Virus record (IMG/VR): IMGVR_UViG_3300025154_002045
Coordinates: 1 to 55,922 of that record
Strand: one strand, 5' to 3'
DNA length: 55,922 bases
Source of the DNA: a virus
Lineage: Duplodnaviria > Caudoviricetes
In this document: one piece after another, positions 37,978 through 55,821 of the stretch
Position numbering within the stretch: the stretch's first letter is position 1
Layout of the letters: the number at the start of each line of letters is the position of its first letter
Translations under genes and position numbers: made by a program
Notes under the pieces: model-generated
What the model was told of the DNA's origin: nothing
What the model saw: the letters and a program-made list of their open reading frames with translations, nothing else
Databases searched by the model: none

Positions 37978-38047
37978 GACAATTTCTTATCGGAGCGACC
38001 CACCTGCCTCAGGCAGGTACGGCGACCGATGGGGCTGTGTCCAATAC

Positions 38048-38079
38048 ACAAAACGACTCCTTTTTCGGGGTCGTTTTGT
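38048..38079. terminator. Intrinsic terminator
   Basis: ACAAAACGACTCC-TTTTTC-GGGGTCGTTTTGT. Confidence 0.75.
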
Positions 38080-38302
38080 CATTCTTCGCATACTACACGC
38101 GACGCTTCTTCTCACGTTGAGAAAGTGCGCTCGCGGCAGTCTGCCTCGCGGGCTTGCTCGTTCGCTTTGAACGAAGTTGCTTTGATGCAACTCGTGCAAT
38201 CTTCTTACTCGTTGCTTTCTTTGGCATACGAAAGGTTAATAATTATTGACAGCATATTACAGGACTTGAAAGATCTTGCAAAATGGATTAGTATATCTCC
38301 GT

Positions 38303-38950
38303 ATGCATGAGACAAAACGTAAAATTCTTGCCCTTTCCCGTAGCCGGAACTTGGGCGATATGTCCCTCCAACAAATCGGGGATGCTGTCGGGATTAAGAA
38401 TCCTAGCGGGGTCAGTTACCACCTTTCCCAGCTCTACGCGTCTGGGCACCTGAGAAAGGGAGGGAGTGGTGTCGTAACCGCTTTGGATGATCGGGGCGAT
38501 GCCATCTCGCTTAACTCCATCCCGATTCTCGGGGCGGCGAATTGTGGCCCAGCCAGCCTGTACGCGGAAGATGTGGTGGAAGGTTTTCTTCAGGTATCTG
38601 CAAAGCTCGTCCACCCAGGAAAGAAGCTGTTTGCACTTCGTGCCAGCGGCAACTCCATGAATAACGCAAAGGCGGGTGATCGCAAAGACAAGATTGAGGA
38701 CGGCGACTACATCATCATCGACTCGACCAAGCGTAATCCGGAGTCTGGTTCCTACATCGTCGCCGTCCTCGAAGGCCTGGCAAACATCAAGCGGTTCTCG
38801 AAGAACGATCAGACCGGCGAGATCGCTCTCCTCTCGGAATCCACAGAATCGAATCCACCAATTTTTCTTCATCCCGAGGACTCCGATAAGTTCTTCGTAG
38901 CTGGTGAGGTAAAGTTCGTTCTTAAAAAACCAGCAATGAACTGGAACTAA
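38303..38950 (+). CDS. LexA-like repressor (wHTH plus S24 peptidase)
   Basis: SLQQIGDAVGIKNPSGVSYHL..L...G.L; LGAANCG cleavage site, GNSM serine, IKR lysine; start moved to ATG 38303. Confidence 0.88.
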   Translation: MHETKRKILALSRSRNLGDMSLQQIGDAVGIKNPSGVSYHLSQLYASGHLRKGGSGVVTALDDRGDAISLNSIPILGAANCGPASLYAEDVVEGFLQVSAKLVHPGKKLFALRASGNSMNNAKAGDRKDKIEDGDYIIIDSTKRNPESGSYIVAVLEGLANIKRFSKNDQTGEIALLSESTESNPPIFLHPEDSDKFFVAGEVKFVLKKPAMNWN

Positions 38951-38953
38951 TCT

Positions 38954-39199
38954 ATGCCCAATTACCACGTGACTAATAAGAAAGGTTCCGACAATTGGAG
39001 GATTGTTAAGGAAAACGCCGATCGAGCCTCTGGCACCGCGAACACGCAGAAACAAGCTGAACAGTTAGCGAAACAGTTTGCCGAAGGAGCAGGCGGAGGG
39101 GAGGTACGAATCCATCGTCCAAATGGTGGGCCGATCCGAGATAGCGATACAGTCGCACCTGGTCGCGATCCTTTTCCGCCAAGAGATAAAAAGAATTAG
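38954..39199 (+). CDS. DUF2188 family protein
   Basis: YHV......W.I..E...RAS....TQ..A...A........EVRIH..NG.IRD......DPFPP. Confidence 0.85.
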   Translation: MPNYHVTNKKGSDNWRIVKENADRASGTANTQKQAEQLAKQFAEGAGGGEVRIHRPNGGPIRDSDTVAPGRDPFPPRDKKN

Positions 39200-39202
39200 T
39201 AT

Positions 39203-40093
39203 ATGTCCTGGGAAGATACTTTCAAATCTTGGGGCGCTGCGCCGGGCACTACGGAACAGCAGAAAATGGAGAATACTGAGACGGCTGTTCGGAAAGCTAT
39301 AAGTGCCAGTGCTCGTTTGGCGGATATGGATATTTCGATCATTCCGCAGGGGTCATACAAATCGAAGACGAACGTTAAGAATGACAGTGATGTCGATATT
39401 TGCGTTTGCCTGAACTCAACCTTCTTCCCAAGATATCCTGAAGGTAAAACGCAAAACGACTACGGAAACGTCGATGGCTCCATCAGTTTTTCAGACTTCA
39501 AAAACCTCATACAAAAAGCTTTGGAAGATTACTTTGAAAAGTCAGAAATCACTCGCGGAAACAAAGCGTTCGATATCCATTCAAATACTTACAGAATCGA
39601 TGCGGATGTGGTTCCTGCTTTTGCTTACAGGTATTACTACGATACAGGTTATGATTGGCACAAGGAAGAAGGAATCTGCTTTCTTACTGACGATGGAACA
39701 AAAATAATAAACTGGCCTCACCAGACGTACAGAAATTGTAAAAATAAACATGACGCAACGGGGCAAAGATATCGCAAGATGACTCGTATCTTAAAAAGAT
39801 TACGAAACAAGATGCAGGAAGAAAATATTGTCGAAGCAAAAGACATACCGTCTTTCCTTATCCAGAGCATGGTTTGGAGCGCTCCTGACGACCACTTTAA
39901 TAGAGCAACGTATTCCGCTGATGTGCGTGCAGTACTCGCGCACTGTTACAATGAGACACTGCCGAATGGAAAGCATGCGACATTACGTGAGGTTAACGAT
40001 ATTAAAAATATCTATGGATCGCATCAGCCGTGTACTCGAGAGAAAGCTCATGCCTTTTTCTCGAGGGCATGGAGCTATTTTGAATTTGAATAA
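39203..40093 (+). CDS. cdnE: CBASS CD-NTase, CdnE-like
   Basis: QGSY...TN....SDVDI, RGNKAF.I, DADVVPA, INWP, RILK, PSFLIQS. Confidence 0.9.
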   Translation: MSWEDTFKSWGAAPGTTEQQKMENTETAVRKAISASARLADMDISIIPQGSYKSKTNVKNDSDVDICVCLNSTFFPRYPEGKTQNDYGNVDGSISFSDFKNLIQKALEDYFEKSEITRGNKAFDIHSNTYRIDADVVPAFAYRYYYDTGYDWHKEEGICFLTDDGTKIINWPHQTYRNCKNKHDATGQRYRKMTRILKRLRNKMQEENIVEAKDIPSFLIQSMVWSAPDDHFNRATYSADVRAVLAHCYNETLPNGKHATLREVNDIKNIYGSHQPCTREKAHAFFSRAWSYFEFE

Positions 40094-40098
40094 ATGCT

Positions 40099-40716
40099 AT
40101 GGAGAAAATGAACAATTCAATCAAAATACATGCCCAGATATTCACTTTTCTCATCATATGGGGCCTGGTGCTATTTATCAGCAGAATATATTCGACCATC
40201 GATTTGTGGTCAGCAATAAAACTGATTCCTCAAGCAATTTCACTCTACGTTGCCGTAGGGATTATTTTTACAAAATGGTTGTGGCGTTCGAAATTTTTGC
40301 AAGGTTGGCTTATTAAAATTCCTGATCTTCAAGGCACATGGCGTGGTGAATTGAAAAGCGACTGGATTAATCCAGAGACGGGAAAGGGTATGGATCCCAT
40401 TTCTATGATTTTGGTAATCAAACAAACTTTTTCAAGCATTCAATGCACCCTCATGACAAAAGAGTCTTCAAGCTATAGCACGACAGCAAATATAAACATT
40501 GCTCCAAATAGCGAGGACTTGTATTTAACTTATAATTACACTAATCGACCAAAGGCTACTATTCGAGAGAGAAGCGCAATTCACGACGGCGCTTCTCTTT
40601 TGAAAATTATCGATAAACCCAGCAGATGCCTCGAGGGTGAGTATTGGACGAGCCGTAAAACTCGTGGCGAAATGACACTCTCTTTCGATTCAAAGGATCT
40701 CGTAGAGAAATTTTAG
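40099..40716 (+). CDS. cap15: CBASS effector Cap15 (2TM plus beta-barrel)
   Basis: Two TM helices, W.W, PDLQGTW.G.L.S, IKQT, T.ESSS.S, Y.Y.N.P, H.G, L.GEYWT.R.T.G. Confidence 0.88.
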   Translation: MEKMNNSIKIHAQIFTFLIIWGLVLFISRIYSTIDLWSAIKLIPQAISLYVAVGIIFTKWLWRSKFLQGWLIKIPDLQGTWRGELKSDWINPETGKGMDPISMILVIKQTFSSIQCTLMTKESSSYSTTANINIAPNSEDLYLTYNYTNRPKATIRERSAIHDGASLLKIIDKPSRCLEGEYWTSRKTRGEMTLSFDSKDLVEKF

Positions 40717-40737
40717 GATTAGTTGTATCCTCGATCG

Positions 40738-42087
40738 TTAGATTATTTCCACGGTTCTGTTTAGATAAATCAATCGACTCCTTAGATTTCCAAGCAGTTC
40801 CCGTTTCTCAGACACGCTTCCTTCTTTCAGAAGATACTTAGCGTACGTTCGGATATTTACGTCACCCTCATCGGCTTCTTTCTTTCCATCCGATCCAAAG
40901 ACCACTTTTTGAAAATGACTGAACCGCTTGATCTCATCCTCCAGCTTGTGTCGCATCCCAAGCTCGTTAATATTGATCCGGTCGAGAATTTTTAAAAGCT
41001 CTCCGATCAGCTCCTCCTCCCTGATGTACTGGTTCTTGCAGTTCCGGTCGCGCGCCCGCGTGCAGCCGTAGTAGACATAGTGCGCCGTTGTCCCATCGCG
41101 AAGCTTTTTGTACTTGTCCTCCGCGCTGATACCGGATCCGCAGTAGCCACAGGTAAACAATTTGGTGAACGCGAACTCTTTATTCTCGCGTACGATCTGG
41201 TCTCGCTTGAGCTGGACTTGACCGAGATCGAACAATTCTTTTGTGATGATTGGCTTATGCTTGCCTTCGTACCAATTGCCGCTATTTTTGGGACGCTCGA
41301 ATACCCCGTAGTACATCGGGGCATCAAGGATACGGTAGAGACCGCTCAATGTCAGCGACTTATTACCGCGTGTTTTAAAGTTCAGGTCATGCTTTAGCCA
41401 GTTGTAAATCTTCCGACCGCTCCATTTCTCATACGCAAGCTTTTCAAACATTTGTTTGATAACCGGAGCGCGCACAGGATCGATGATGATCTGACATTTG
41501 CGATCCATCCGACCTTGATTCAGATAACCAAGCGGTGCAACACCCGGCCATAGCCCCATTTCTGCCCGCGTTCGAAGTCCACGTTTTACGTTCTCGCCGC
41601 GATGATCGTTTTCTAACTTTGCTGTCGATCCTAAAATCATCAACATGAATTTTTCGTTGGGCGAGTTGCTGAACCGCTGACCGTACGTTCGGATCTCGTG
41701 AAGCAATCCTTGATCCATTAAATCCACGATAGCTCCGAGGTCGCCCGCATTTCTGCTCAATCGATCTGGTGCCCACGTAAGAATCCCACCGAACTTTCCT
41801 AACCTGATGTCCGCCAAAAGTTCGTTGTAAATAGGTCGTTGTCCCGTTGCCTTTGCCGAATGACTTTCGCGACGGATTTCGGTCACGTCGAGCCCCTCTC
41901 TTTCTGCGAGTTGGAGCATCTCCTTAATCTGTGAGTCAATGGAAAGTACCTGACGCTCCTCTGACTCAGTTGACTTACGAGCGTAGAGGCAGTACTTCAC
42001 CTTCTCTACGACTTCAGGTTTTTCCTGTTCGTGTTTTGTGCGTGTATACCCAGATTGGGCTACCGCCACTCCATGATTGTTTTTCAT
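40738..42087 (-). CDS. Large serine recombinase
   Basis: YARKSTESEERQ, DRLSRN, APLGY, CGYCG...C...C; start moved to ATG 42087. Confidence 0.93.
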   Translation of the reverse strand: MKNNHGVAVAQSGYTRTKHEQEKPEVVEKVKYCLYARKSTESEERQVLSIDSQIKEMLQLAEREGLDVTEIRRESHSAKATGQRPIYNELLADIRLGKFGGILTWAPDRLSRNAGDLGAIVDLMDQGLLHEIRTYGQRFSNSPNEKFMLMILGSTAKLENDHRGENVKRGLRTRAEMGLWPGVAPLGYLNQGRMDRKCQIIIDPVRAPVIKQMFEKLAYEKWSGRKIYNWLKHDLNFKTRGNKSLTLSGLYRILDAPMYYGVFERPKNSGNWYEGKHKPIITKELFDLGQVQLKRDQIVRENKEFAFTKLFTCGYCGSGISAEDKYKKLRDGTTAHYVYYGCTRARDRNCKNQYIREEELIGELLKILDRININELGMRHKLEDEIKRFSHFQKVVFGSDGKKEADEGDVNIRTYAKYLLKEGSVSEKRELLGNLRSRLIYLNRTVEII

Positions 42088-42167
42088 ACAACACAAGGGA
42101 TGACGCAATGGCGGTGGGGCGTCCAGGCTGCCTACTGTAGGTAACTTATCTCCTTAAATTTTCTTGT

Positions 42168-45100
42168 TTACGCGTAAACCGGCGCGTACTCTTTATAAAC
42201 TCGGACAGTCTCCAAATAGATGTATTCAATCAAACGCTCAGTCTGCTGCTCCTGAATGATGCCACGTTGAATCAAAAGCAACCGAACGTTCTGACGGATT
42301 CGGGCTTTGATTGTTTCGTTGTTCGTCCAATCAATTGTCAGGTCGCGACGAATACGCTTCGTAAGATCCTTCACGAATTCTTTAATATCGATTTTGGCAT
42401 CCTTCAAATCAGGATCCTTGGCCAACGAATCATAGAACGTGATTTCCTCGGGAGACAATCCAAACGCCTGGCTTTCGGCATCTAGTTTTTTAATCTCGTC
42501 GGCGATTTCGAGCAGTCGTTTGATGATTTCAGATGAGCTAATCACGTTGTTCTCGTATTTCTCGATCAGATCCGTGAGCAAGGTGAGCATTGTTTCGTAA
42601 CGAGCCTTGTTGGTCCGCATTCGAGTGACGATTTCTTTATCCAAGAGCTTACGGACAGTATCAACGGCCAAATTTTTGTATTCCGACTTACGGATCTCCT
42701 CAGCAAACTTGTCATCGAAAATCGAGATACTCTTGGATTCGTCGGCTGACGCAAACAGATCAATGATGTTCTCAGCTTGCACGGCGTCATGAATCAAGGA
42801 ACGGATTGCGCTCTCGGTTGCCTCTGGGAATACCGCCTTTGGAATAATCGTTTGTTTCGCAATTCCTTCGCGAACAGCCTGAAGGAACTGTATGTCAGTC
42901 AGGATATCCATAGCCGACTCGCTTGGCATGACAAGAGCGTGGAGCTTCGAGAGTTTCCCCACCGTTCCGATAAATTGCATCTTGCGGTCATCGGATAGAA
43001 TTCCATCTTTGGTGATGACCTCATTGATACAAGCCTGCAAAAGGCGTGAGAGCTCGGTGCCTTTCAATTTCTTCCAACCTGAATACTTGATTCCGTTGAA
43101 GAATGAAATAGCAGACTGATGCAACGAGCCCATCTCGGCGATAATCTCATCGAGAGAGAGCATGGCTTCTTTCTGCACGCCAGAATCGTAAATCGAGAGA
43201 GCTTTTTTCAGATTCTCAGCGATCCCAATGTAATCAACGATGAGTCCGCCCGGTTTGTCCTTAAACACACGATTTACGCGGGCGATGGCCTGCATGAGCC
43301 CATGGTTCTTGAGGGGCTTATCGAGATACATCGTGTGCAAACATGGAACGTCAAAGCCCGTCAGCCACATGTCGCAAACGATGGCGATCTTGAGCGGGTC
43401 GTTAATTTTCTTGAAGCGTTTCTCCAGCTTTTTAGTATCTCGTTCCAGCTGAATGTCCGACGCAAACTCGTCACTGTTTGAAATCACAACCGCACACTCT
43501 GGCGCGTCCCACATCTTTTTCATCTCCTTGTAGACCGCGACGGCGATTCTACGGCTCATCGTCACAACCATTGCCTTACCTTCAATTGGGCGATTGTTAT
43601 AATGATGAACAATGTCTTTCGCCACCTGTTCAATACGGCTCTGTGTACCGATGATTTCTTCGAGAACAGCCCATTCTTTTCGAGCCTTCGTCTTTTCGTC
43701 GACGATAATCTCTCCCAAGAGACTGTCGAATTTGGAGTCAACAAATTTATCTGCCATGTGCAGCGGCACCAGCCTCCCCTCGTAGTAGATTGGGACGGTC
43801 GCTCCATCTTTCACTGCCTTGCCGATGCGATATTCGCTGACAACCGGCCCGAACACGCGCATCGTATCCTTATCGTTGTTCGCGATGGGGGTTCCCGTCA
43901 CACCAAGGAAGCTCGCATTAGGCATGGCCTGTCGCACATTGCCTGCCAACGCGCTGTATTGCGTACGGTGCGCCTCATCCGCAAGCACAATTACGTTCTC
44001 ACGATCTGTAAGGACTGCATTCGCGTCAGGATCCTCTTTAAACTTCTGGATAGTCGTGAAAATAAGCTCGCTCCCAAGACGACCGAGACGCTCTCGCAAA
44101 TCCTTGATGCTGGATGCTCGTTTCGCAAGGGTGCCATACCCCGACCGTTTGAAGGTTTTATACAGCTGGTCGTCCAAATCTTCACGATCGGTCAAAAACA
44201 CATAGGAAGGGCTCTTCAAGGCATCGATCCGTTTGGTCTTGTTCACGTAGAAAACCATGGACAACGATTTGCCCGAACCCTGCGTGTGCCAAAAGACACC
44301 AATCTTGCGTTCCTGTTTGCCGGCGATAGCGTGGACTGTGCTCTCTACGGTCTTATTCACCCCGTAGTACTGGTGGTAGAGACACATCTTCTTGGTGTAG
44401 GTCACTGCGTCTCCATCCCCATCGGCCTCAAATACAATGAAGTTTTGGAGTACATCCAAGAACCGCTGTTTATTGAACAGGCCGCGCAAAAGTACCTCGA
44501 GCTGGACGGCGTCCTTCGGGGCATCGTCGTCCGTGTTCACGCCTTTCCATGACGCATAACGTTCCCAGGAAGAAGAGATCGTCCCATACTTTGCGTTATG
44601 AAGGTCAGAGAGTCCGACAATCTGATTGTACAAAAAGAGTTTTGGAACCTCCCTTTTATAGGATTCGACATCCCGATACGCTTCCCCGATCGAGGCGGAA
44701 TCTCGCACGGCACTTTTCAACTCAAACACTGATAGCGGTAACCCGTTCACGAAGACCACTACATCTGGTCGGCAAACTGAATCGATGCCTTGCACTGTAA
44801 ATTGATTAACGACCAGAAATTCATTTGCTTCCTGATTCTGAAAATCAATCAATTTAACCAACTCGGTGTGTTCATTTCCATCGGCTCGCCAAGAGTGCTT
44901 TTTCCCATCCGTAATCCAAGCGAACATCTCCTTGTTCCCTAGAACCAGGTCGGCATGGTTGTATTCTGCGACGTCACGAGCAACCACCTCGGCTTGTCCT
45001 GAAGGCAATTGGGGATTGAGACGACGAATGGCACCAACCAACCGATCCTTCAACACTACTGTGCGAAAATCGCCACGCTCGGCCTTCTGCTGGCCCGGGT

Positions 45101-45194
45101 TAATGTCTGGACCATAGACATATTCGTAGCCCTGACCCTTGAGCCAATCTATGAGAGATTGCTCGGTTAAATTTTGTTCGTTGAGGGGGTTCAT
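42168..45194 (-). CDS. hsdR: Type I restriction subunit R
   Basis: RPD...NGLP...ELK, WHTQGSGKS, DEAHR, TGTP, GFD.P, QAIARVNR. Confidence 0.96.
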   Translation of the reverse strand: MNPLNEQNLTEQSLIDWLKGQGYEYVYGPDINPGQQKAERGDFRTVVLKDRLVGAIRRLNPQLPSGQAEVVARDVAEYNHADLVLGNKEMFAWITDGKKHSWRADGNEHTELVKLIDFQNQEANEFLVVNQFTVQGIDSVCRPDVVVFVNGLPLSVFELKSAVRDSASIGEAYRDVESYKREVPKLFLYNQIVGLSDLHNAKYGTISSSWERYASWKGVNTDDDAPKDAVQLEVLLRGLFNKQRFLDVLQNFIVFEADGDGDAVTYTKKMCLYHQYYGVNKTVESTVHAIAGKQERKIGVFWHTQGSGKSLSMVFYVNKTKRIDALKSPSYVFLTDREDLDDQLYKTFKRSGYGTLAKRASSIKDLRERLGRLGSELIFTTIQKFKEDPDANAVLTDRENVIVLADEAHRTQYSALAGNVRQAMPNASFLGVTGTPIANNDKDTMRVFGPVVSEYRIGKAVKDGATVPIYYEGRLVPLHMADKFVDSKFDSLLGEIIVDEKTKARKEWAVLEEIIGTQSRIEQVAKDIVHHYNNRPIEGKAMVVTMSRRIAVAVYKEMKKMWDAPECAVVISNSDEFASDIQLERDTKKLEKRFKKINDPLKIAIVCDMWLTGFDVPCLHTMYLDKPLKNHGLMQAIARVNRVFKDKPGGLIVDYIGIAENLKKALSIYDSGVQKEAMLSLDEIIAEMGSLHQSAISFFNGIKYSGWKKLKGTELSRLLQACINEVITKDGILSDDRKMQFIGTVGKLSKLHALVMPSESAMDILTDIQFLQAVREGIAKQTIIPKAVFPEATESAIRSLIHDAVQAENIIDLFASADESKSISIFDDKFAEEIRKSEYKNLAVDTVRKLLDKEIVTRMRTNKARYETMLTLLTDLIEKYENNVISSSEIIKRLLEIADEIKKLDAESQAFGLSPEEITFYDSLAKDPDLKDAKIDIKEFVKDLTKRIRRDLTIDWTNNETIKARIRQNVRLLLIQRGIIQEQQTERLIEYIYLETVRVYKEYAPVYA

Positions 45195-45195
45195 A

Positions 45196-46533: not shown

Positions 46534-46537
46534 ACAC

Positions 46538-48979
46538 TTACACCAACTTTGACAGCAACGAATCCCTAGACTGTTTCAGGAGATTGTTTTCTTCTTCACA
46601 AACGACCATCTTTTCAATTAACGGTCGCATATTGATCGTAAATATCTCGGCTAGCGAGGTTGGGGGAATCACAAAGTCTTGTTGCTCAAAGTCCGGCCAA
46701 TGCCCTTTGTATTCCTGCATCTTAATTTTTTCTTTTGTAAGGAAATATACGAATAGCGTAGAGTAACCATTTTTCCCTTTGTATGGAAGAACGTTTTGAA
46801 TGCAAGAAAACGGTTCGGTCAGCAGCCGGTAATAACAAGTATGATTCGTGAATACAACGACTGGATTTTCTATGCTGGCTATTACTCCTGGTTGATCATT
46901 GTGATAGCCAATATTGCCAGATCTACCTTGGTCAAGGATCGGTACCTTCCCCACTGGAAGAGCGGACTTGTTATCATACTTTTTTCCGACATTAATCCGC
47001 TCGACAACATCGAGCACGTTTTGAACTTTCCAACCCATTGGAATTTCTCCCATCTCACTTTCAACCAACCCAACCTTCTCGCGCCCAGGAAAGTTGAACT
47101 TAATGAACCATTCATTAAAAATTTTGGATGCGATGGTTTCTAGGATTTTTATTGATGAAAAGCTGATTTCTCCCCAGTCATATTTAGGGTAAAGACTCGT
47201 TAACGCAGAGGTAATTTTAGCGTCTAGCTCTACATTCTTTTCCGTCTGTTTTTTTAGGAATTCGACAGTGTGCTTCATGTCTTGCTCAAACGAGATGCCA
47301 TCATCCTCAACCTCAGAAAGACCGACGTAACGTCCGGGAGTAAGGACATAGCCATTTTTCTTTATCTCTTCGAGAGTCACGGACTTACAGTACCCGGCGA
47401 TATCTTCGTATGTTGCGGCTCCCGATTCTCCACGCCAGGCACGGACGGTGCCTGCAATTTTTTGGATATGCTCCGTGTTGAACACGACCTGCTTGCGAGA
47501 GATCTGCTCAAACAATTCCCGCGCATCGATGAAGAGTGTCTCGCCCTTGCGGCTTCGGAATCGGTCACCACCCTTATTCTTTGAGAGGAACCAGAGCGAT
47601 ACTGGGAGTCCGACGTTGTAGAAGAGCTTGGACGGGCAGGAAATGATCACGTCGACTAGATCGGTTTCGATCAGCTTCTGTCGAAGTTCGCCTTCCTTAC
47701 CTGATACGGCCAACGCACCGTTTGGCATGACGAAGCCAGCATTGCCGTTTGGGGCAAGGTGATGTGCGAAGTGTTGTACCCACATGAAGTTGGCGTTCCC
47801 GGACGGTGGGAGGCCGAGAGTGATGCGGGGGTCATTATCCGATATCTTGGACGGTTCCCATTCCGCATTGAACGGCGGATTGGCGATCACGAAATCCGCC
47901 TGGAGGTGCGGGAACATGTCATTGTAGTAGGAGTTGCCGAGCTCGATCTTTCCCGAAAGGCCGCGAATTGCCAGATTCATTTTTGCGAGGCGGAGCGTCG
48001 TCTGATTGCTCTCCTGGCAGCTAATGGAAAGCTTCGACGGATCCTGACCGTGTTCACGGAGAAACTTTCCCATCGACACGAACATGCCACCGCTTCCGCA
48101 GGCCGGGTCAAAGACACGTGCATTTTCGTATGGTTCGAGAATCTCAACGAGGAGAGAGACGATAGAACGAGGCGAAAAAAACTCCCCACCGCGTTTGCCT
48201 TCGGCAGATGCAAACTGTCCCAGAAAGTATTCGTAAATGCGACCAAGAATATCCTTCTCGCGATCAAAGTCGTGGTCGAACGAGATGCGCGAAAAAATGT
48301 TGACCAACTCGCCGAGTACCGAGTGATCGAGGTTTGTCTTGGTATAGACGCGTGGCAGGACATTTTCGAGCTGAGCCGGATTATCCTTCTCGATGAGCGT
48401 CATTGCGTCATCCAGAACCTTTCCCAAGTCCGCACTCATGGTCTTCGTCTGAAGGTATTCCCAACGCGAATGTTCCGGAACGTAGAACACGCCTTCGGCG
48501 GTGTAGAAATCCTTGGTCTCGAGGATGTGCTTCCGAGCTTCTTCGTTCGAAACATAGAAGTCCTCGTTCTTTGGGTCGCGGGTCATTTCCGCAAGCACTT
48601 CGCGACGCTTGTAGAAGGAGTCGGAGATGTATTTCAAAAAGAGGAGGCCGAGGACGATATTCTTGTACTCGGACACGTCTATGTTCCCCCGAAGCTTGTC
48701 GGCGGCCGCCCAAAGCTCTTTTTCAAAGCCTAAATCATGGTGTTGGCCTTTCTTGCCAACTACGCTTTCTGTCGCCTTCTTTTGCTCCTTTACGATCCGC
48801 GCTTGCAGTTCTTCCGAAAGAGATATCTTCGGAATGAGCCAGGTTGGCTTGGAAGGATCCCCAACGTTCTCTGCCTTGATATCGCCCTTCTTAATCTTTT
48901 GGTGGACGGCAACACGCGAAATCCCTAACATTTTAGCGAGCTGGGTTGGAGTAATGAATTCAGACTTGTTGATGGCCAT
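46538..48979 (-). CDS. hsdM: HTH-HsdM fused to a single-TRD HsdS-like domain
   Basis: N-terminal HTH; LWAAADKLRG, GEFFSP, DPACGSGG, ANPPFN; C-terminal LETIA..IF.EWF..F.FP...SEMGEIP.GW...RDSLLSKL. Confidence 0.9.
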   Translation of the reverse strand: MAINKSEFITPTQLAKMLGISRVAVHQKIKKGDIKAENVGDPSKPTWLIPKISLSEELQARIVKEQKKATESVVGKKGQHHDLGFEKELWAAADKLRGNIDVSEYKNIVLGLLFLKYISDSFYKRREVLAEMTRDPKNEDFYVSNEEARKHILETKDFYTAEGVFYVPEHSRWEYLQTKTMSADLGKVLDDAMTLIEKDNPAQLENVLPRVYTKTNLDHSVLGELVNIFSRISFDHDFDREKDILGRIYEYFLGQFASAEGKRGGEFFSPRSIVSLLVEILEPYENARVFDPACGSGGMFVSMGKFLREHGQDPSKLSISCQESNQTTLRLAKMNLAIRGLSGKIELGNSYYNDMFPHLQADFVIANPPFNAEWEPSKISDNDPRITLGLPPSGNANFMWVQHFAHHLAPNGNAGFVMPNGALAVSGKEGELRQKLIETDLVDVIISCPSKLFYNVGLPVSLWFLSKNKGGDRFRSRKGETLFIDARELFEQISRKQVVFNTEHIQKIAGTVRAWRGESGAATYEDIAGYCKSVTLEEIKKNGYVLTPGRYVGLSEVEDDGISFEQDMKHTVEFLKKQTEKNVELDAKITSALTSLYPKYDWGEISFSSIKILETIASKIFNEWFIKFNFPGREKVGLVESEMGEIPMGWKVQNVLDVVERINVGKKYDNKSALPVGKVPILDQGRSGNIGYHNDQPGVIASIENPVVVFTNHTCYYRLLTEPFSCIQNVLPYKGKNGYSTLFVYFLTKEKIKMQEYKGHWPDFEQQDFVIPPTSLAEIFTINMRPLIEKMVVCEEENNLLKQSRDSLLSKLV

Positions 48980-48995
48980 AGGTAATAAAATAGCA

Positions 48996-49050
48996 TTAAC
49001 ATGTGTAAAGTATATGACGTTTATTCTCTTGTCAAGTTTACATGTGTTAA
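48996..49050 (-). promoter_or_regulatory. hsdM promoter bracketed by inverted operator arms
   Basis: TTAACATGTGTAAA 48996-49009 and TTTACATGTGTTAA 49037-49050 flank minus-strand TTGACA (49035-49030) and a TA-rich -10. Confidence 0.6.
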
Positions 49051-49153
49051 GTTCGTACGCAATGATCCATCAAAAATGCCTTGAAAGTATCAATAAATAC
49101 TCTGGGGCGGCAGAATTGCTTTACTTACGGGGTAGTTATGCTATCCTAGCAAC

Positions 49154-49266
49154 GTCTAGATCCAAGCCTTAGCAAGGCTTTTATTGCCTATTTCCGGATT
49201 GCGCGCATTGAGCGGCATCCGGTTAAAACAAACCTCGCACAATCCGTGCTTGGCTTGGGTCTAGAC
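49154..49266 (+). ncRNA. Structured leader/small RNA, c4-antisense-like layout
   Basis: 15-bp stem GTCTAGATCCAAGCC/GGCTTGGGTCTAGAC, inner CCGGAT..ATCCGG hairpin, extended -10 TG-C-TATCCT just upstream. Confidence 0.45.
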
Positions 49267-49326
49267 ACCACCGGGTGTCGCTTTTGTTTTATGCGAACAC
49301 CCCACCTAATTCCTTTATCAGCAACT

Positions 49327-49992
49327 ATGTCCACACTCTTTGGGCTCATCGCGTTCGCTGCGTTTGTCTGTACGTTTCTCGGACTCATCAAGCCGAGCTT
49401 ACTCTCCCGTTTTTCAAAGAAACCCATGACTCGGCTGCGTTCATTCGCCACTTTTGGAGGTATTTTTTTCTTATTTTTGATCCTTGCCGCAGCATCGTCC
49501 CCTTCACAACCTGTGTCAGAGAACCAATCGGAAAGCCAAAACGACGCATCGGTTATGCAGGAAGACGCTGCTAGTTATGTGACTGAGGAGAACACCCAAG
49601 AACGCACAATCGAACAAGCTATCATCGAACTCCTAGGCGAAGCATCGAATGAAGACTTACCGCGTGTTCGTAATATCGACGCGTATGATGGGGTGATCCT
49701 CGTTGAGTACAGCGCTGATGAGAATCTCACGAGCAATCTCACGAGATTTGGAATCTGGATGGACACCATTGAAATCGTGCAAAAGCTCTCTGACAACGAG
49801 GACATTAACAGTGTTACTGTTAATGCTTATCTCAACCTTGTCGACGCATACGGCAACACAGCGCCCGGCAAGGTAATGACCGTAAACATCACCAAGGAGA
49901 CGTGGTCGAAGATCAACTGGGATAATTTCCTCACCGATAATCTCCCTGTCGTTGCGGACATCTATTGGGTTCACCCAGCAATTAACGACTAG
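49327..49992 (+). CDS. Membrane-anchored acidic extracytoplasmic protein
   Basis: Two N-terminal TM segments, S/E linker, D.YGN motif; start moved to ATG 49327. Confidence 0.7.
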   Translation: MSTLFGLIAFAAFVCTFLGLIKPSLLSRFSKKPMTRLRSFATFGGIFFLFLILAAASSPSQPVSENQSESQNDASVMQEDAASYVTEENTQERTIEQAIIELLGEASNEDLPRVRNIDAYDGVILVEYSADENLTSNLTRFGIWMDTIEIVQKLSDNEDINSVTVNAYLNLVDAYGNTAPGKVMTVNITKETWSKINWDNFLTDNLPVVADIYWVHPAIND

Positions 49993-51488
49993 AATTTCAT
50001 ATTCATGACGTCTCCGAAGACTGATTTGCCACCCATAAATGGACGTATCTTTGATCTCGGCGGACGGGTTTCGATGATCTTATTGACCATGGTGGTGAAA
50101 GCGTCAGCGAGATCGTCATGACGTTCAAGACCGAAACCAGCAAGTTGAGCAATGAGCAGCTCGGATCCTTTTCTCGAGAATTTGATGATGCCGGAGCGGA
50201 TCGCTTCGGATGTGAAAGCGATTCTCGTTCGCTTATCGTTCCCACCTGGATTTACCCCCTCAACAGGCAAGCCCTTCTCCTTCAACCTCTGAACGAGATA
50301 GTCTTGTGCCTGCACGTTTTCGATGTACATCACGTGACGATGTGTCATTTTAAATCGTGTATGTAACTGTTCAATAGTCTTGATGATACCAGGAAATGTT
50401 AAGCGCTCGTTTATAGAATTAGGTAGGATGAAAATTCGCAGCTCTTCGCCGTACCCGTGCACCACTGCTGACACCATAGCAGTATAGTCGGCGGTTTGTT
50501 TCTGCGAGATTGCTAAATCAACCCCCGTTGCAATGATAGGGTACGTATATCGATCGACCTTCGGTATCTCGTCGTAATACTGGATCCACTCGGGAAATAC
50601 GACTCGTGTTGCGTCAGAAATAATAGTCAATAAATATTCTTGCTGCCACGCAAGTTCGTTCGCCACACTCTGACGTAATTCCTCGATCTTTTCTTCCGTT
50701 TCAAATTTACCTGGCCATAAACAATGACCATCCTCATCGACCAGGGGATACCATTTATATAATCCACGAAGCTCCTTTGCTTCAATCTTTCCTCGCAGAC
50801 GCATCATAAGCGAATCATCGTGAAGCAAATTCCCTACGATGATTGTGCGCGTACCAATGTCGCCGAGTGGAATAACCTCGCGGGTGAACCAGTCGAACGT
50901 CTTATTTCGTCCCTCCATTGTTTTACAGGAATTCATGTCTTCAACGTCGTCGAGAATAAGTAAATCTGGACGATGCTCGAAATGACGAGTGCCACGGATG
51001 CTCTGTTCAACGGAGACAACCATGATGCGGGCGTTGGTGTTCGTAAAAACAAGCGATGACATTGCCCATTCACCTCCTGTTTCTTCTTGGAATGGTCCCA
51101 TATCGCTTTTGAGCAACTTGTTGTTTTCGAGCTCGCGTCGAATATTCATCATATGTTGTCGCGCTTGCGCCTGCGTTTGACAAATAATGACCACAAATTT
51201 TTTTTGCTGGATTCCAAGAATTGCCCAAAGCGAGTACGACAACGTCACGATCGTCGACTTGGCTGAACCGCGAAACGCGACAATACACGCAAGTTTGTTC
51301 GATGTATCTTCGGTGATGCGGAAGATGTCCTTTTGAAATTCTGCAATCGGATATTTCACATAGTGCGAAAAATACAGATGAAAAAACATCAGGTGACTTT
51401 CGCGAGCAACCGTTTGCCGAACGACACGATCCTTAGCAATGGCATCAATAGGATTATTGGTTTGTATTTTCGTTGTTGTCCTCTTCAT
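49989..51488 (-). CDS. terL: Terminase large subunit
   Basis: AFRGSAKST, LLILDDVE, WQQEY, GVDLA...AD.TA, HDDLADAF; start moved to ATG 51488. Confidence 0.92.
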   Translation of the reverse strand: MKRTTTKIQTNNPIDAIAKDRVVRQTVARESHLMFFHLYFSHYVKYPIAEFQKDIFRITEDTSNKLACIVAFRGSAKSTIVTLSYSLWAILGIQQKKFVVIICQTQAQARQHMMNIRRELENNKLLKSDMGPFQEETGGEWAMSSLVFTNTNARIMVVSVEQSIRGTRHFEHRPDLLILDDVEDMNSCKTMEGRNKTFDWFTREVIPLGDIGTRTIIVGNLLHDDSLMMRLRGKIEAKELRGLYKWYPLVDEDGHCLWPGKFETEEKIEELRQSVANELAWQQEYLLTIISDATRVVFPEWIQYYDEIPKVDRYTYPIIATGVDLAISQKQTADYTAMVSAVVHGYGEELRIFILPNSINERLTFPGIIKTIEQLHTRFKMTHRHVMYIENVQAQDYLVQRLKEKGLPVEGVNPGGNDKRTRIAFTSEAIRSGIIKFSRKGSELLIAQLAGFGLERHDDLADAFTTMVNKIIETRPPRSKIRPFMGGKSVFGDVMNMKF

Positions 51489-51870
51489 ATTCGTTTGTGA
51501 TTCCTGCGAGCACGAATGCTTGGCGAACAAGCTCTTTTTGCTCATCCGATAATTCATGCACTGTGTTCAGGGTTCCTTCTAGCTCGATGCGTGTTTTGTA
51601 GTCCGTGTGATGATGCTTGAGCCAATACATGATCGCCCGCATATCCCGATCCCTCACCGCGCCGATGAGCTGACTTTCAGCAAGGTCGTTGACCATGAGA
51701 CGACCGTCAAAAATTGCGATATCGACTTTTCGTGAAAATTCCGCATCCTCTTCTTTCCAGCGATAAAATGTCGCCCGTCCGATGCAGAGTTTCTCACAGG
51801 CTATCTGTACGATTGGTGTTTTCTTAAGCTGTTCCAGAAACAGCATTTTTGTTTCGTTGTTTTTCTTCAT
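51454..51870 (-). CDS. Terminase small subunit (HTH)
   Basis: FLEQL...ACEK..IGRATFYRWK.ED.EF, AES.L, AI.YWLK; overlaps terL start. Confidence 0.8.
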   Translation of the reverse strand: MKKNNETKMLFLEQLKKTPIVQIACEKLCIGRATFYRWKEEDAEFSRKVDIAIFDGRLMVNDLAESQLIGAVRDRDMRAIMYWLKHHHTDYKTRIELEGTLNTVHELSDEQKELVRQAFVLAGITNEYEEDNNENTNQ

Positions 51871-52640
51871 AGCAATTTAGCCTTTTGGCCAGACATCTTC
51901 TCCCAATAGGAAATAATCCCGGCGCAATATTCAAGATCAACTTCGCCAGCAAAACAGCGCCGTTTTGTTTGCTCACAGCAAATGAGTGTCGTGCCCGATC
52001 CCGCGAATGGCTCATACACAACATCACCGACATTAGTGGCGTTGAGTACCAAGTGGCGAACGAGTGGAATCGGCTTCTGTGTTGGATGCCGACTACTTTT
52101 GTTCGGCTTTGGGTAGAAGAGGACGGACTTGTCCTTGCTTCGACGGAAGGCGTGCCTGCCGAACCAGCCAAAGACAATAAGTTCATGCTGCGGAAGATAA
52201 TCCTTCCGCCCTATGACCGCGTGATTTTTTACCCAGATAATGAGCTGGGAAAAATACACGTGCAGTTGATCAAGCGCATCCTTGAGTGCGAACAGCATCT
52301 TGTCGCAGTTGAAAATGTAGATGCTGTTTTTCTTTATAAGATGCGGAAGCACTGGAACGAGCCACGCCTTGGTGAACGTTACATATTCGCCCTCGGTAGA
52401 AATATCATCGTTCACAATACGCTTGTTCACCTTCACTGCGGAGAATCCCTCCTTACTTTGCGTATAGGACACGCCATATGGAGGATCAGTTATCACGGCA
52501 TTGATGCGTGTATTTCCTATGAGTTTTTTCACGAGCGTCGCATCTAACGAACTTCCGCAGAGCAGGCGATGGTCGCCAAGCTGCCAGATTTGGCCGGTCT
52601 TAATTGAGCTTTTTCGCTTTTTGTCCTGTGAGTTTTTCAT
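51867..52640 (-). CDS. DNA methyltransferase (N4/N6 beta class)
   Basis: LG.HRLLCG.S, TDPPYG, HPTQKP, EPFAGSGTT; start moved to ATG 52640. Confidence 0.92.
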   Translation of the reverse strand: MKNSQDKKRKSSIKTGQIWQLGDHRLLCGSSLDATLVKKLIGNTRINAVITDPPYGVSYTQSKEGFSAVKVNKRIVNDDISTEGEYVTFTKAWLVPVLPHLIKKNSIYIFNCDKMLFALKDALDQLHVYFSQLIIWVKNHAVIGRKDYLPQHELIVFGWFGRHAFRRSKDKSVLFYPKPNKSSRHPTQKPIPLVRHLVLNATNVGDVVYEPFAGSGTTLICCEQTKRRCFAGEVDLEYCAGIISYWEKMSGQKAKLL

Positions 52641-53871
52641 AACGGTTAAGAATGACCTCCGCAAATACGGGGCTTTGTTCAATAAGATAGGTTGAGCGCT
52701 GTAATTGTTCTGCGGCGACCATTAAGCTTCCGGATCCTGCAAAACAGTCCAAGATGATGTCGCCAGATTTGGTGCATCGGCGAAGTGCTCGCTCATGCAG
52801 CTTCGGTGGCTTTGCGGTCGGGTGCGTCATGTCAGTGCCGTTAAGACGCTTCACGAGCCAGATGTCGATCATATCAAGCACGTCCTCGAGTGTGCGGTTT
52901 CCAGTGCCGACTTCTGCGTTCATGATTTCGGAGAGATTAAGTACCTTGTCAGATAAATACGGTTTACCAATCGTGCCGTAAACACATGGTTCGAACTGAC
53001 GGTTAAACGCAACCTGCGGAGTCGGAGTCGAGTTGTTCTTGATCCATAAGCACACACGCTTATTTTGCACCTGTAAGTCCTGATAAAGGGTTTGCAAAAG
53101 CCAGATATATTTCTGGTCGCAGTACGTGAAGATGTGCACATCCTTCTCGCATACTGACAATCCATTGGTCAGTGCCTTACACAGAAACTCGCGATATTCT
53201 GCGTCAGATTTATTGTCATCGACCTGCCCGCCGAAGTGACGCTTGCCGCCAATACCCTTATCGTATGACAGACCAATGTTATAAGGCGGATCTTGGAGAA
53301 TGATGTTGGCTTTCTTGTCACCCATGAGTGTCTGCACGGACTTTGGATCGGTGCTGTCACCGCACAGCAGACGATGCCGCCCTAGTTGATAAAGATCGCC
53401 CGTCTTAACCTTCGGCTTCTTGATGCGTCCAACTTCCTTGTCCACATCAAACTCATCATCCTCGACATCAAGGTCATCAAAGAGATGCGATAGATCGGTG
53501 TTATCAAAACCGCTGACGAGTAGCATATCGATGTCAAAGTTCTCGGCAAGCTTGTCCCAATCCCAATCGCCGTGTACGCGATTTGAAGACAATAGATACT
53601 GGTTGTATTCCTGCTTCGTAAGTTTGCGATTCGGAACACGTACTTCGATTTTCTCGTTGCCGCGTTCGAGGAGTTTCAGCACCATGAGCCGCTGGTGGCC
53701 GGCGATGACTTTGTTGTCCATGTCGACAACGGGAATCTCGACGAGGTTAAATTTCTTGAGGCTCTTCTTGAGATCCTCGATCTGTTTCGGACTCATTGTG
53801 CGTGGGTTCTTCTCGTTGGGAACGAGGTCGGAAACCCGACGCCGTTCCGTCTTCCATGAAAGTTTTTGCAT
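52600..53871 (-). CDS. ParB-N-fused DNA methyltransferase
   Basis: NPR...IAGHQR ParB part; HRLLCGDS, DPPYN, HPT.KP, D.FAGSGS. Confidence 0.92.
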   Translation of the reverse strand: MQKLSWKTERRRVSDLVPNEKNPRTMSPKQIEDLKKSLKKFNLVEIPVVDMDNKVIAGHQRLMVLKLLERGNEKIEVRVPNRKLTKQEYNQYLLSSNRVHGDWDWDKLAENFDIDMLLVSGFDNTDLSHLFDDLDVEDDEFDVDKEVGRIKKPKVKTGDLYQLGRHRLLCGDSTDPKSVQTLMGDKKANIILQDPPYNIGLSYDKGIGGKRHFGGQVDDNKSDAEYREFLCKALTNGLSVCEKDVHIFTYCDQKYIWLLQTLYQDLQVQNKRVCLWIKNNSTPTPQVAFNRQFEPCVYGTIGKPYLSDKVLNLSEIMNAEVGTGNRTLEDVLDMIDIWLVKRLNGTDMTHPTAKPPKLHERALRRCTKSGDIILDCFAGSGSLMVAAEQLQRSTYLIEQSPVFAEVILNRYEKLTGQKAKKLN

Positions 53872-54010
53872 ACACTTTTCGTAAAGATTTATACAAGAAG
53901 CATACAGATAAGCGAGTTTTTATATCATCCGCCATGACTCCAGATTTCAAACTAAAAATAGCCCTTTGTCTGGGCTAATTCTGCATACGTCGAGCTGGAT
54001 ACACGGCGGA

Positions 54011-54643
54011 CTAAAAAATAGCGATGTGGTAGAGGGGATGAATACGATAACCCGAGCCAGACTTTGAGTCGATCACTTCATATTCTTGCGACGTACCAAG
54101 GTCACGGCGCAATGCTAAATTGATTGTTCTTTTTTGTTCGCTCAGGGCCTTTAGATCCTTACATCCAATTTTCTCTATTAATTCTTGCGTTGATGCATAA
54201 CCACCTTGTTTTTCTACAAGTATTCGAAGTAGGGCTAGATTCATTCCATCATTTGCAAAATCGCAACGGGAATTGTCTTTACTATCACGATAGGTCATGC
54301 GTCCTTCCGGCGAAAGCGCTAATCGGATAAGGGTCACGTCGTAAGCGTATTCTTTCATTTTACCTCGCAGGATATCCATGAGCTCATCCCATTTCGCTGC
54401 GGGATCTACTTTCCAGATACGAGCAAAATCTGAATCAAATTTCGATCCTCTCAGCCATACTGCAATTATGTCCATCGCACGGTTATAAGCTCCTCCCAAT
54501 TCCTTTTCAAGAAACATGAGATGTAGATCCCTTAATTCTTCTGGTTCCCTTACGGTCGTAAATCCAATTTCAATTTCAGAAAAAATCCGCTGTAATGCAG
54601 GTAGGTATTCGTGAACAGATATTCGAGAGAATTCATCGACCAT
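54011..54643 (-). CDS. Protein with C-terminal OmpR-like winged helix
   Basis: LLRILV...G...S..EL...I...IN..LR..L.....I....G.GYRI; upstream of the packaging operon. Confidence 0.65.
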   Translation of the reverse strand: MVDEFSRISVHEYLPALQRIFSEIEIGFTTVREPEELRDLHLMFLEKELGGAYNRAMDIIAVWLRGSKFDSDFARIWKVDPAAKWDELMDILRGKMKEYAYDVTLIRLALSPEGRMTYRDSKDNSRCDFANDGMNLALLRILVEKQGGYASTQELIEKIGCKDLKALSEQKRTINLALRRDLGTSQEYEVIDSKSGSGYRIHPLYHIAIF

Positions 54644-54725
54644 ACAGGGGCATATTATCAGACCTATCCATAAATATCTCTTCTTGGGTTCAATTGCAAT
54701 GTATCTAAATCTTCATTCATTTTCT

Positions 54726-55643
54726 ATGACGATCCGCACCCTCATCGTCGGCTATGAGCCGCCCTCAGACCTAGCCGCCCTTAACCCACGAGACCGAAGG
54801 AACGCTGAGTATTTTTCCAAGCTCCTTGGAGAGCATAACCTTGGCGAACTCCATTACTCCTCTCAAGAAAACTTTTGTGAAAAGCTCGACGCACTCGATC
54901 CAATCATCGTCATTGTTTTCGATTCTTCCACGGCGCGTGAGGTGAGCGAGTACAAAAGGGACACGTTCGTGTACGTCGCGGAATCGCCGAGTTCCGTTTT
55001 CCACCGCAAGACGGAGGTTGAATCCCGTCAGCTGAAAAACGAAAAGATTTTCAGAGAAGCCGCAGGACTCTTGCGTCAGATCATTGAAGAAGGTGAGGAG
55101 AAGTTGGTCGCCGCGCGGAGGTACGCGGCAATGTCCTTTCAGGACAAGTACGACATGGTCGTACAGATGCTTATCAGCGACGACGAAAAAATCCATAAGA
55201 TGGGACGTGAACTCATCAATCGAAACGATATCGATCCTGACTTCATTTGGATTCGTGTGAAGCTGATTGCTGACCTGTGGCAAAACGCTGACGCGAAGGG
55301 TCGTCAAGAATTTACGGAAGCCGCTATACAAGGACATGTCAGTAACGGTATCGCGCATCAGATGAAGGATTTCACCGACGCGGACGGACAGATTTACAAG
55401 CAATTCATGTTTCACGACGTGCATGGCAAGGATGTAAACGAAATCCGCCTGGTTCCTGTGGCAACACCAGATATGGGAAAGTATGATTACGAAGCTCTCT
55501 TTAGTAAGCACGAAACTCCAATTGGTTCACGCACGGATCTTGAGGCGGGAATCTGGAAAACGGAGCGAGATATTCAGATGTCTAATTCCAACGATGAGCC
55601 CACCGATTCTCCACTAAATCCAGCGGAAAAACTACATAAATGA
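54726..55643 (+). CDS. Hypothetical protein
   Basis: Long ORF with normal composition; start uncertain (54684/54699/54726). Confidence 0.65.
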   Translation: MTIRTLIVGYEPPSDLAALNPRDRRNAEYFSKLLGEHNLGELHYSSQENFCEKLDALDPIIVIVFDSSTAREVSEYKRDTFVYVAESPSSVFHRKTEVESRQLKNEKIFREAAGLLRQIIEEGEEKLVAARRYAAMSFQDKYDMVVQMLISDDEKIHKMGRELINRNDIDPDFIWIRVKLIADLWQNADAKGRQEFTEAAIQGHVSNGIAHQMKDFTDADGQIYKQFMFHDVHGKDVNEIRLVPVATPDMGKYDYEALFSKHETPIGSRTDLEAGIWKTERDIQMSNSNDEPTDSPLNPAEKLHK

Positions 55644-55692
55644 GACAGTGCCGAAACCCAAAAAAGTGTCTCATTTGTCTCGTTTGTGTTCC
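55638..55692. repeat. Inverted plus 9-nt tandem repeats
   Basis: AAATGAGACA 55638-55647 / TGTCTCATTT 55667-55676, then TGTCTCGTT and TGTGTTCC in register. Confidence 0.5.
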
Positions 55693-55821
55693 GTCGACCC
55701 CGACCCACTGTCCTTAAAAGCGCCTATGGACGAATGATCGAAAACCCCTTAGAATACCCCGCAGATGGTGGTACTTAACCCGTGTACACCGCCAATTTAC
55801 AATTTTTGTGAAAATTGATAT

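Follow-up and report, generated by a model that had tools for sequence, protein, structure and literature searches.

This work concerns a 55,922-bp viral contig (IMG/VR record IMGVR_UViG_3300025154_002045; Caudoviricetes), referred to here as the window, and a 17,817-bp island within it (positions 37978 to 55794) that lies behind a complete prophage at a tRNA-Ser gene. The island represents an intact copy of a compact integrative element whose family is large and monophyletic. The family core consists of a regulator, a ParB-domain DNA methyltransferase (ParB-MTase) with or without a second methyltransferase (MTase), the small and large terminase subunits (TerS and TerL), and a large serine recombinase (LSR), around which swappable defence cargo is arranged. 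We place high confidence in the reality of this family and of its anatomy. That its members are helper-dependent hitchers, i.e., phage satellites, we regard as probable.

A terminase-bearing family without capsid genes

A sequence-only reading of the window had drawn attention to the island and had called for a survey of genomes for similar recombinase-terminase-MTase islands. Such a survey retrieved an entire family, and the island is therefore not a one-off deletion remnant. More than 3,000 protein clusters are homologous to the island TerL; the top 120 show 56 to 98% identity, and 15 of these lie on contigs of 100 to 430 kb. Scanning one genome per species confirmed 440 loci, 80 of which were fetched and combined with 49 loci from two scans of viral contigs, giving the 129 loci analysed here. 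The family was defined as the 108 loci with a TerL at least 44% identical to that of the island, which is itself 50 to 65% identical to family members.

Gene order was derived by clustering all open reading frames (ORFs) of the loci. In the order typical of the family, a divergent S24 repressor gene (with DUF2188) is followed by the regulator, the ParB-MTase with or without the second MTase, TerS, TerL, zero to several cargo genes, and an LSR on the same strand. The regulator slot holds one of three unrelated kinds of protein, namely the winged-helix type of the island or the types designated c5 and c8; an Atlas structure search for the c5 regulator gave no usable match. Homologues of the island proteins were found among the 129 loci at 109 (TerS), 109 (ParB-MTase), and 80 (LSR). 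In overview, most members also appeared to carry an SOS-type S24 repressor and a DUF2188 protein, for which the counts are 38/129 and 11/129, respectively. The S24 homologues are usually divergent from the regulator-MTase-terminase operon of their loci. Downstream of TerL, 64 of the 108 family loci have an LSR on the same strand. Of the 80 genome loci, 49 have it within 10 kb; among the other 31, 13 have <2 kb of sequence downstream of TerL. In 17 of the 80 (counted from the gene-order listing), the LSR directly follows TerL. Measured from S24 to LSR (n = 27), the median span is 6.75 kb and the shortest 4.9 kb, with a range of ∼5 to >15 kb.

The island shares most of this layout. The ParB-MTase and then TerS lie upstream of TerL on the same strand (53871 down to 49989, minus strand), and the LSR, also on this strand, is found 7.9 kb past TerL, with a restriction-modification (R-M) system and a membrane-anchored ORF in between. 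The island S24 gene is not divergent from the regulator-MTase-terminase operon.

Pfam, PHROG, and PADLOC assigned none of the 15 island ORFs to a portal, capsid, tail, lysis, or replication function or to a recognisable excision factor. A tblastn comparison of the island with 331 proteins, taken from related phages and from the adjoining prophage, gave only ParB and MTase similarities, so no remnants of structural genes are present. Profiles, the TerL fold, and the tblastn search together bear out the gene inventory of the sequence-only reading: a recombinase, a terminase, two MTases, a winged-helix regulator, and defence cargo, with no structural genes.

The closest phages with a related terminase (L082 to L087 and L121 to L123, referred to here as sister phages) are temperate and siphovirus-like, with TerLs 34 to 40% identical. 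The full order in L082 is ParB-MTase, TerS, TerL, portal (phrog_2662, 1.4e-110), protease, major capsid protein (MCP; phrog_10), adaptor, and tail. Searched with hidden Markov models of the sister-phage portals and MCP, the 108 family loci gave no match, nor did the island stretch. That relatives might include a portal and capsid, in which case the island would be a simple deletion remnant, is thus contradicted at all 108 loci. A PHROG tally of 103 ORFs between TerL and LSR returned superinfection exclusion (Sie)-like proteins, helicases, nucleases, ABC transporters, reverse transcriptases, and MTases, and like families were returned for 118 flank ORFs (drawn from 269 cluster representatives of 385 candidates). 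Neither tally has a head or tail family among the 25 commonest PHROG families listed.

A TerL tree of 127 rows was built with FastTree (Shimodaira-Hasegawa-like support, midpoint root), leaving out three rows that were <400 amino acids (aa) long or contained X. All 107 portal-less TerL rows form one clade (support 94), whose sister is a clade of 9 portal-linked phage rows (support 97); the island TerL lies inside the portal-less clade, grouping with that of L001 (99). Because the portal-less TerLs are monophyletic, the capsid-less state arose once and has diversified since. For family pairs with 0.05 < dS < 1, Nei-Gojobori estimates of dN/dS had medians of 0.032 for TerL (14 pairs, range 0.012 to 0.061), 0.017 for LSR (3 pairs), 0.084 for ParB-MTase (7 pairs), and 0.085 for TerS (17 pairs). 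By these ratios, TerL, TerS, the MTase, and LSR are all under strong purifying selection across the family. Relaxed selection on terL, which would have undercut the earlier proposal, is not seen family-wide, the TerL pairs not being close kin of the island copy.

Structural modelling indicates that the island TerL is a full-length large terminase. The AlphaFold2 model (pLDDT 79.6) retrieved the large terminases of PhiV-1, HK97, D6E, T4, and Sf6 as the best Protein Data Bank (PDB) rows in Foldseek, with E values of 7e-18 to 1e-10. A 32-sequence alignment contains invariant motifs, which we take to be the Walker-type and acidic motifs of large terminases. Identity to TerLs of the nearest isolated phages is only 26%, and a PDB sequence search with the 32-relative TerL profile gave no matches. 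The TerS gene overlaps the TerL start and is directly upstream of TerL in 109 of the 129 loci. Its model comprises a helix-turn-helix (HTH) and a long helix, and the weak top fold rows include small terminases, none at an E value of ≤0.001; a relative's TerS gives a weak Sf6_terminase match (0.004). The assignment is thus probable rather than proven. Comparison with sister-phage TerS by hhalign gave no similarity.

Host labels were counted for the 80 genome loci: 52 belong to Patescibacteria-type lineages, 10 to Gammaproteobacteria, 7 to Bdellovibrionota-type lineages, and 2 to Bacteroidota, with 9 unclassified. Metagenome-assembled genomes (MAGs) labelled Gammaproteobacteria, Bdellovibrionales, or Saccharibacteria carry TerLs near-identical to those of Patescibacteria MAGs, so either the labels are unreliable or transfer is very wide. 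The non-Patescibacteria labels are doubtful, given these near-identical TerLs and the sizes of three such genomes that were checked (0.9 to 1.3 Mb). The hosts are mostly ∼1-Mb Patescibacteria of groundwater and similar habitats.

Ends, insertion site, and gene content of the island

The sequence-only reading had placed the island ends at 37978 and 55794 from the recurrence of the motif CCGCCA, with which the tRNA-Ser(cga) gene also ends. As evidence, this motif alone was rejected: it occurs 17 times on the plus strand of the window versus ∼12 expected, with 5 copies inside the island, i.e., at chance level. The boundaries themselves stand, on the evidence of relatives and of contigs from other metagenome runs. 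The closest LSR, 84 to 86% identical, is found in a ∼1-Mb genome (G001), where the element adjoins a tRNA-Ser(cga) pointing at the LSR, with one 1,157-aa gene in between. The first ∼40 nucleotides (nt) after the tRNA end are conserved between this element and the island, and at the opposite end of the G001 element, 157 nt align with positions 55640 to 55794 at 72% identity (E value, 1.4e-15). Homology stops exactly at the CCGCCA that ends at 55794.

The element is present in 13 groundwater and soil metagenome runs. In run X3, a single 17,861-nt contig at a depth of 130 corresponds to positions 37965 to 55825. Contigs from other runs have ∼25 nt in common at the left end and then diverge; one joins the left end of the island directly to a tRNA 3′ end, with no prophage, and others place it after a related but different right end. 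Contigs from run X9 follow the island to 55794 before diverging, with variants that join 53872 to 55694. Some contigs pass through the right end at 55794 into a related left end. Such junctions between related ends fit tandem or circular forms of family members, not a circle of the island itself.

A tRNA gene was found within 6 kb beyond the LSR in 18 of the 64 loci with a complete LSR. Each lies on the strand opposite to the LSR; 11 of the 18 are tRNA-Ser genes, and 12 have cargo between LSR and tRNA. If the prophage is discounted, the island likewise has its LSR-side end at a tRNA 3′ end, with the tRNA pointing toward the LSR. The 3′ end of the tRNA-Ser(cga) gene is the attachment point common to prophage and island. 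The earlier description of a separate element in tandem with a complete prophage, here one with a serine integrase, holds. Two other accounts of the insertion site were discarded. An attachment site inside the LSR 3′ end, suspected from loci L053 and L055, was dropped because the LSR C terminus is conserved as protein up to the stop codon. Circular permutation via a second attP was also considered; the reading that replaced it, in which cargo lies between tRNA and LSR, has frequent parallels in relatives (the 12 of 18 above). Within positions 37800 to 55922, terminal or flanking repeats did not exceed chance, and Rfam gave no match.

Three side observations concern these ends. A joint of 42130 to 55665, seen in one contig each from runs X7, X9, and X10, skips 13.5 kb and has only 21 letters on one side; it may represent a related element lacking the terminase operon or a short common motif. 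A second joint, 37992 to 41006, likewise has only 20 to 21 letters on one side. Just outside the island, 24 nt at 55822 to 55845 (minus strand) resemble the T-arm and 3′ part of a tRNA-Ser in inverted orientation (score of 31 versus a maximum of 25 in 300 random windows) and may be a tRNA fragment left by an earlier insertion; the contig from X3 runs to 55825.

Two family elements per contig, 20 to 28 kb apart or near tandem, were also observed (L115/L116 on a 39-kb viral contig, L015/L042 on a 56-kb contig, and L043). Together with the contigs that run from one related end to another, these pairs suggest arrays at one site.

The features of the window are listed in Table 1. The island is 94% coding, and four noncoding gaps exceed 60 bp (298, 348, 139, and 151 bp). 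Its length and that of the prophage (37,850 bp) each differ by one base from the values first given (17,818 and 37,849 bp). The sequence-only reading had missed the S24 and DUF2188 genes, the half-specificity domain fused to HsdM, and the membrane-anchored ORF.

Table 1. Annotated features of the 55,922-bp window
Feature	Positions	Strand	Evidence or remark
tRNA-Ser(cga)	38-127	+	ARAGORN; 3′ end CCGCCA at 122-127
Neighbouring complete prophage (outside the island)	128-37977	+	LSR, D12 MTase, ParB, TerS, TerL, portal, SU10-like capsid, amidase
Left terminal segment	37978-38275	+	Conserved arm after CCGCCA, hairpin, terminator-like stem, S24 promoter region
S24 LexA/CI-like autocleavable repressor	38276-38950	+	Peptidase_S24, 1.2e-16
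DUF2188 small protein, S24 partner	38954-39199	+	Matches PADLOC candidate PDC-S16
CBASS (cyclic oligonucleotide-based antiphage signalling system) CD-NTase	39203-40093	+	PADLOC Cyclase, 3.5e-118
CBASS Cap15 two-transmembrane (2TM) effector	40099-40716	+	PADLOC 2TM effector, 2.2e-79; Pfam Cap15_CD_rec
LSR, island integrase	40738-42108	-	Pfam Resolvase, Recombinase, and Zn_ribbon_recom domains
Type I R-M HsdR	42168-45194	-	Pfam and PADLOC
Tetratricopeptide repeat (TPR) protein, role unassigned, 445 aa	45196-46533	-	Between hsdM and hsdR
HTH-HsdM fused to half HsdS, 813 aa	46538-48979	-	Pfam and PADLOC
Membrane-anchored ORF	49246-49992	+	Probable start 49328; phrog_8263, phrog_25008 (families without assigned function)
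TerL	49989-51557	-	phrog_38, 1.5e-75; probable start at conserved Met24 (51488)
Probable TerS	51454-51870	-	N-terminal HTH, then long helix; PHROG TerS families, 1.5e-6 and 5e-6
N6/N4 DNA MTase	51867-52682	-	Profile matches
ParB-domain DNA MTase	52600-53871	-	phrog_498, 9.6e-94; ParB families
Winged-helix regulator (OmpR/PhoB-type C-terminal domain), operon head	54011-54643	-	Trans_reg_C, 0.0015
319-aa ORF, cargo	54684-55643	+	No Pfam, PHROG, or PADLOC match
Right terminal segment	55640-55794	+	Terminator hairpin, then conserved arm ending in CCGCCA at 55789-55794

The Trans_reg_C match of the regulator lies under the Pfam cut-off; Atlas structure rows name the same domain at residues ∼105 to 210. 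PADLOC returned nothing specific for the core genes of the island. The cargo varies among relatives, and the defence genes noted earlier are real. Loci L053 and L055, from different contigs of one MAG, are 93 to 95% identical in their ends and core and differ in the cassette on the S24 side, which in one copy contains CBASS and in the other holds different genes; judged by sequence, this pair is a clean example of cargo swapping. CBASS adjoins S24 in L009, L040, L055, and L079. In relatives, the position following TerL, occupied in the island by the membrane-anchored ORF, holds Sie-like, DUF4352, SNase, or OB-fold genes. For the 319-aa ORF, one homologue was found (43% over 287 aa), directly after TerL in L014. 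DUF2188 copies adjoin S24 in 11 loci, with 55 to 75% identity in the six best of these 11, and this fixed partnership suggests a regulatory rather than a defence role. The type I R-M system has no separate hsdS; a half-specificity domain lies at HsdM residues ∼605 to 813, behind an N-terminal HTH. Homologues of the TPR protein adjoin hsd genes in L011 and L002.

The neighbouring prophage, whose TerL is encoded at 19254 to 20903, abuts CCGCCA on both sides, at the tRNA copy on the left and at a second copy (37972 to 37977) on the right. Its inner ends (at 128 and ∼37944 to 37977) are imperfect inverted repeats, by sequence the signature of serine-integrase attL and attR sites. Its TerL has no sequence similarity to that of the island, and the two LSRs share 27% identity. 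The LSR frame of the prophage (28 to 1644, minus strand) crosses attL at 127/128, its last ∼33 codons being the complement of the tRNA-Ser gene, and the C terminus of this LSR should therefore differ between the integrated and excised states. The portal gives a weak SU10-like match, the capsid is SU10-like, and the host was probably a groundwater patescibacterium; the prophage is possibly among the few complete ones from Patescibacteria. Its right end is found in other flanks in contigs of other runs. The window has no terminal repeat, and a circular contig is not indicated.

Probable helper-dependent packaging and the competing explanations

The island is a mobile element without virion genes of its own, as expected of a satellite. 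On the reading that we consider probable, cleavage of the S24 repressor or infection by a phage would derepress the operon, the MTases would methylate the element DNA, and the LSR would excise it. The element's TerS and TerL would then recognise their own DNA and pump it into the procapsids of an infecting or resident phage, with this helper also supplying tails and lysis. In the new cell, the LSR would insert the element at a tRNA gene. The sequence-only reading had further proposed packaging as dimers, from the size of the island relative to that of the prophage. This was not upheld: family elements span ∼5 to >15 kb between repressor and recombinase, and with sizes so variable the near-half ratio looks coincidental. 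By this analysis, the variation would fit concatemer filling of the kind ascribed to phage-inducible chromosomal minimalist islands, or PICMIs, better than a fixed ratio.

Several points weigh against the satellite reading. In terms of encapsidation, terminal repeats were found in none of 37 whole-contig loci, and with neither a replicase nor a recognisable excision factor, nothing in the element accounts for how a packageable concatemer would form. The adjacent prophage is not indicated as the helper: its TerL is unrelated, and its portal is of a type other than that of the sister phages. Helpers resident in the host do not appear to be the rule either: five host genomes (one complete by title) carry one family TerL each, and none of the five gave a match to Phage_capsid (PF05065), Phage_portal (PF04860), or SPP1_portal (PF05133); a search with SU10_MCP was uninformative, as its control was silent. 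TerL identity of 50 to 65% across MAGs of many lineages is unexpected if the motor docks on diverse helper portals. Among the assembled contigs, in which rare forms drop out, none joins 55794 to 37978, the circle junction for which the earlier reading had asked, and none presents an empty site. Since the tallies described above cover the 25 commonest PHROG families, some loci may carry single structural genes. The TerS assignment draws on weak profile matches and gene position and is only probable. Finally, the S24-DUF2188-CBASS block of the island sits between the tRNA end and the LSR, away from the regulator, and this copy is thus rearranged relative to the common family order.

Some of these points would be natural for a defence island with a domesticated terminase, which moves rarely by LSR and otherwise by another route and whose TerS-TerL would be kept because it seizes the procapsids of infecting phages or cuts their DNA, to the benefit of the host population, while the MTases mark self. 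The cargo slots are dominated by CBASS, R-M, ThsB-TIR, Sie-like proteins, nucleases, and reverse transcriptases, the ∼1-Mb host genomes lack capsid and portal matches, no replicase is present, and TerL is conserved across lineages to the very high degree expected of a host-side function. However, TerL, TerS, and LSR have no PADLOC match, and the linkage to an integrase, the insertion at tRNA ends, the multiple copies per MAG, and the near-identical TerLs under different host labels speak for frequent horizontal movement. Interference and satellite transfer are, moreover, not exclusive: in phage-inducible chromosomal islands (PICIs) and PICI-like elements (PLEs), the two go together. We judge domestication unlikely, if worth keeping in view. 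Still less credence is given to an in-situ packaging engine, akin to lateral transduction or a gene transfer agent, in which the terminase loads the LSR-side cargo and adjacent chromosome, not the whole element, into helper capsids. Such an engine would need neither a replicase nor a recognisable excision factor, the terS-terL direction points to cargo, LSR, and tRNA in all 18 loci with a nearby tRNA, and lateral transduction of defence genes by phages and PICIs is documented (PMC12829572). If packaging ran from terS toward terL, however, the MTases, regulator, and repressor would be stranded and the element would not be propagated, yet conservation and monophyly extend over the whole module.

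Least credible of all, and in our estimate very improbable, is a degraded prophage, formed either by deletion of structural genes or as the far end of a single 55.9-kb prophage with two terminases. ParB-MTase, TerS, and TerL are the normal start of a phage late operon, and the region lies directly beside a prophage. Against this, the 108 relatives gave no portal or capsid match and no remnants were found, the portal-less TerLs make up one old clade shaped by purifying selection, and relatives are found at tRNA genes where there is no prophage. The one-prophage version was rejected outright, as the prophage has inverted-repeat ends of its own, the two TerLs are unrelated, and the island assembles as a separate contig.

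The satellite reading can be extended further than we would defend. In the extended form, the family would be a major, so far unrecognised class of hitchers, and perhaps the main vehicle of defence-gene exchange in Patescibacteria, that needs only empty proheads, tails, and lysis from its helper, since it supplies the complete motor for recognising and translocating DNA as well as its own methylation, and whose unusually conserved TerL docks on the portals of unrelated phages, giving a very broad helper and host range; this seems distinctly unlikely at present. In a bolder variant, the motor may load DNA into something other than a helper capsid.

Relation to known satellites

PICIs (e.g., SaPIs) are integrated and repressor controlled. 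They lack genes for capsid, tail, and lysis, bring accessory or defence cargo, and use a small terminase of their own to redirect packaging. They rely on the helper's TerL, contain a replication module (primase/rep and origin), and usually integrate with a tyrosine integrase. The family differs in having its own TerL and ParB-MTase, an LSR, and no replication gene that we could find: the island encodes a full-length TerL, none of its 15 ORFs contains a primase or rep domain, and no such domain recurs in the family core. Capsid-forming PICIs (cf-PICIs) are described as having their own terminase, encoding the proteins of their own small capsids, and depending on a helper for the rest (10.1101/2022.09.08.507074). 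The island shares with them the possession of a terminase, whereas neither it nor the 108 family loci include a capsid or portal.

The PLEs of Vibrio cholerae depend on the packaging motor of the helper, have replication functions of their own, and are not known to encode a TerL. Like the family, they integrate with a large serine recombinase (PMC6002521). PICMIs are ∼6 kb long, lack capsid-remodelling genes, benefit the host through defence, use an infecting phage as helper, and have a core of integrase, AlpA, and primase inserted beside fis (PMC10803314); that paper nowhere uses the word "terminase". The smallest family members are similar in size, but the family combines TerS, TerL, MTase, and LSR, lacks a primase, and integrates at tRNA genes. 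The PICMI core was not found in the island, which is inserted at a tRNA-Ser gene rather than at fis. Tycheposons and marine virion-encapsidated integrative mobile elements (VEIMEs) are tRNA associated and have cargo slots, some with serine recombinases and packaging genes (10.1101/2020.12.28.424599, PMC9618062). They carry TerS or a capsid protein together with replication genes, and the large terminase is a helper function (PMC9618062). The family resembles them in tRNA association and cargo slots but adds its own TerL and lacks the replication genes. With the sister phages, exemplified by L082, the family shares a ParB-MTase ahead of the terminase; the phages continue to a portal, whereas the family continues to cargo and LSR. 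The structural, lysis, and replication modules of an intact prophage are absent from the island ORFs. In the full-text literature as far as it was accessible, i.e., outside supplements and subscription journals, we found no description of a capsid-less TerS-TerL-MTase-LSR family; gene tables for VEIMEs and tycheposons could hold TerL-bearing elements.

Little is known of phage biology in Patescibacteria or of how their genes are exchanged, and the interchangeable cassettes of the family (CBASS, R-M, Thoeris-like TIR, Sie-like, and others) offer a testable mechanism for the movement of defence systems in these lineages. Possible tools are the LSRs, whose tRNA-end sites are defined, and the terminase, which is compact and conserved. 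Should the satellite reading be true, the family would define the minimum for virion parasitism, with a minimal repressor-to-recombinase span of ∼5 to 6 kb. Known satellites either borrow the TerL of the helper, as PICIs, PLEs, PICMIs, and VEIMEs do, or build capsids, as do cf-PICIs; a widespread family that keeps only the motor, methylases, and an integrase would, on the same condition, represent a third strategy.

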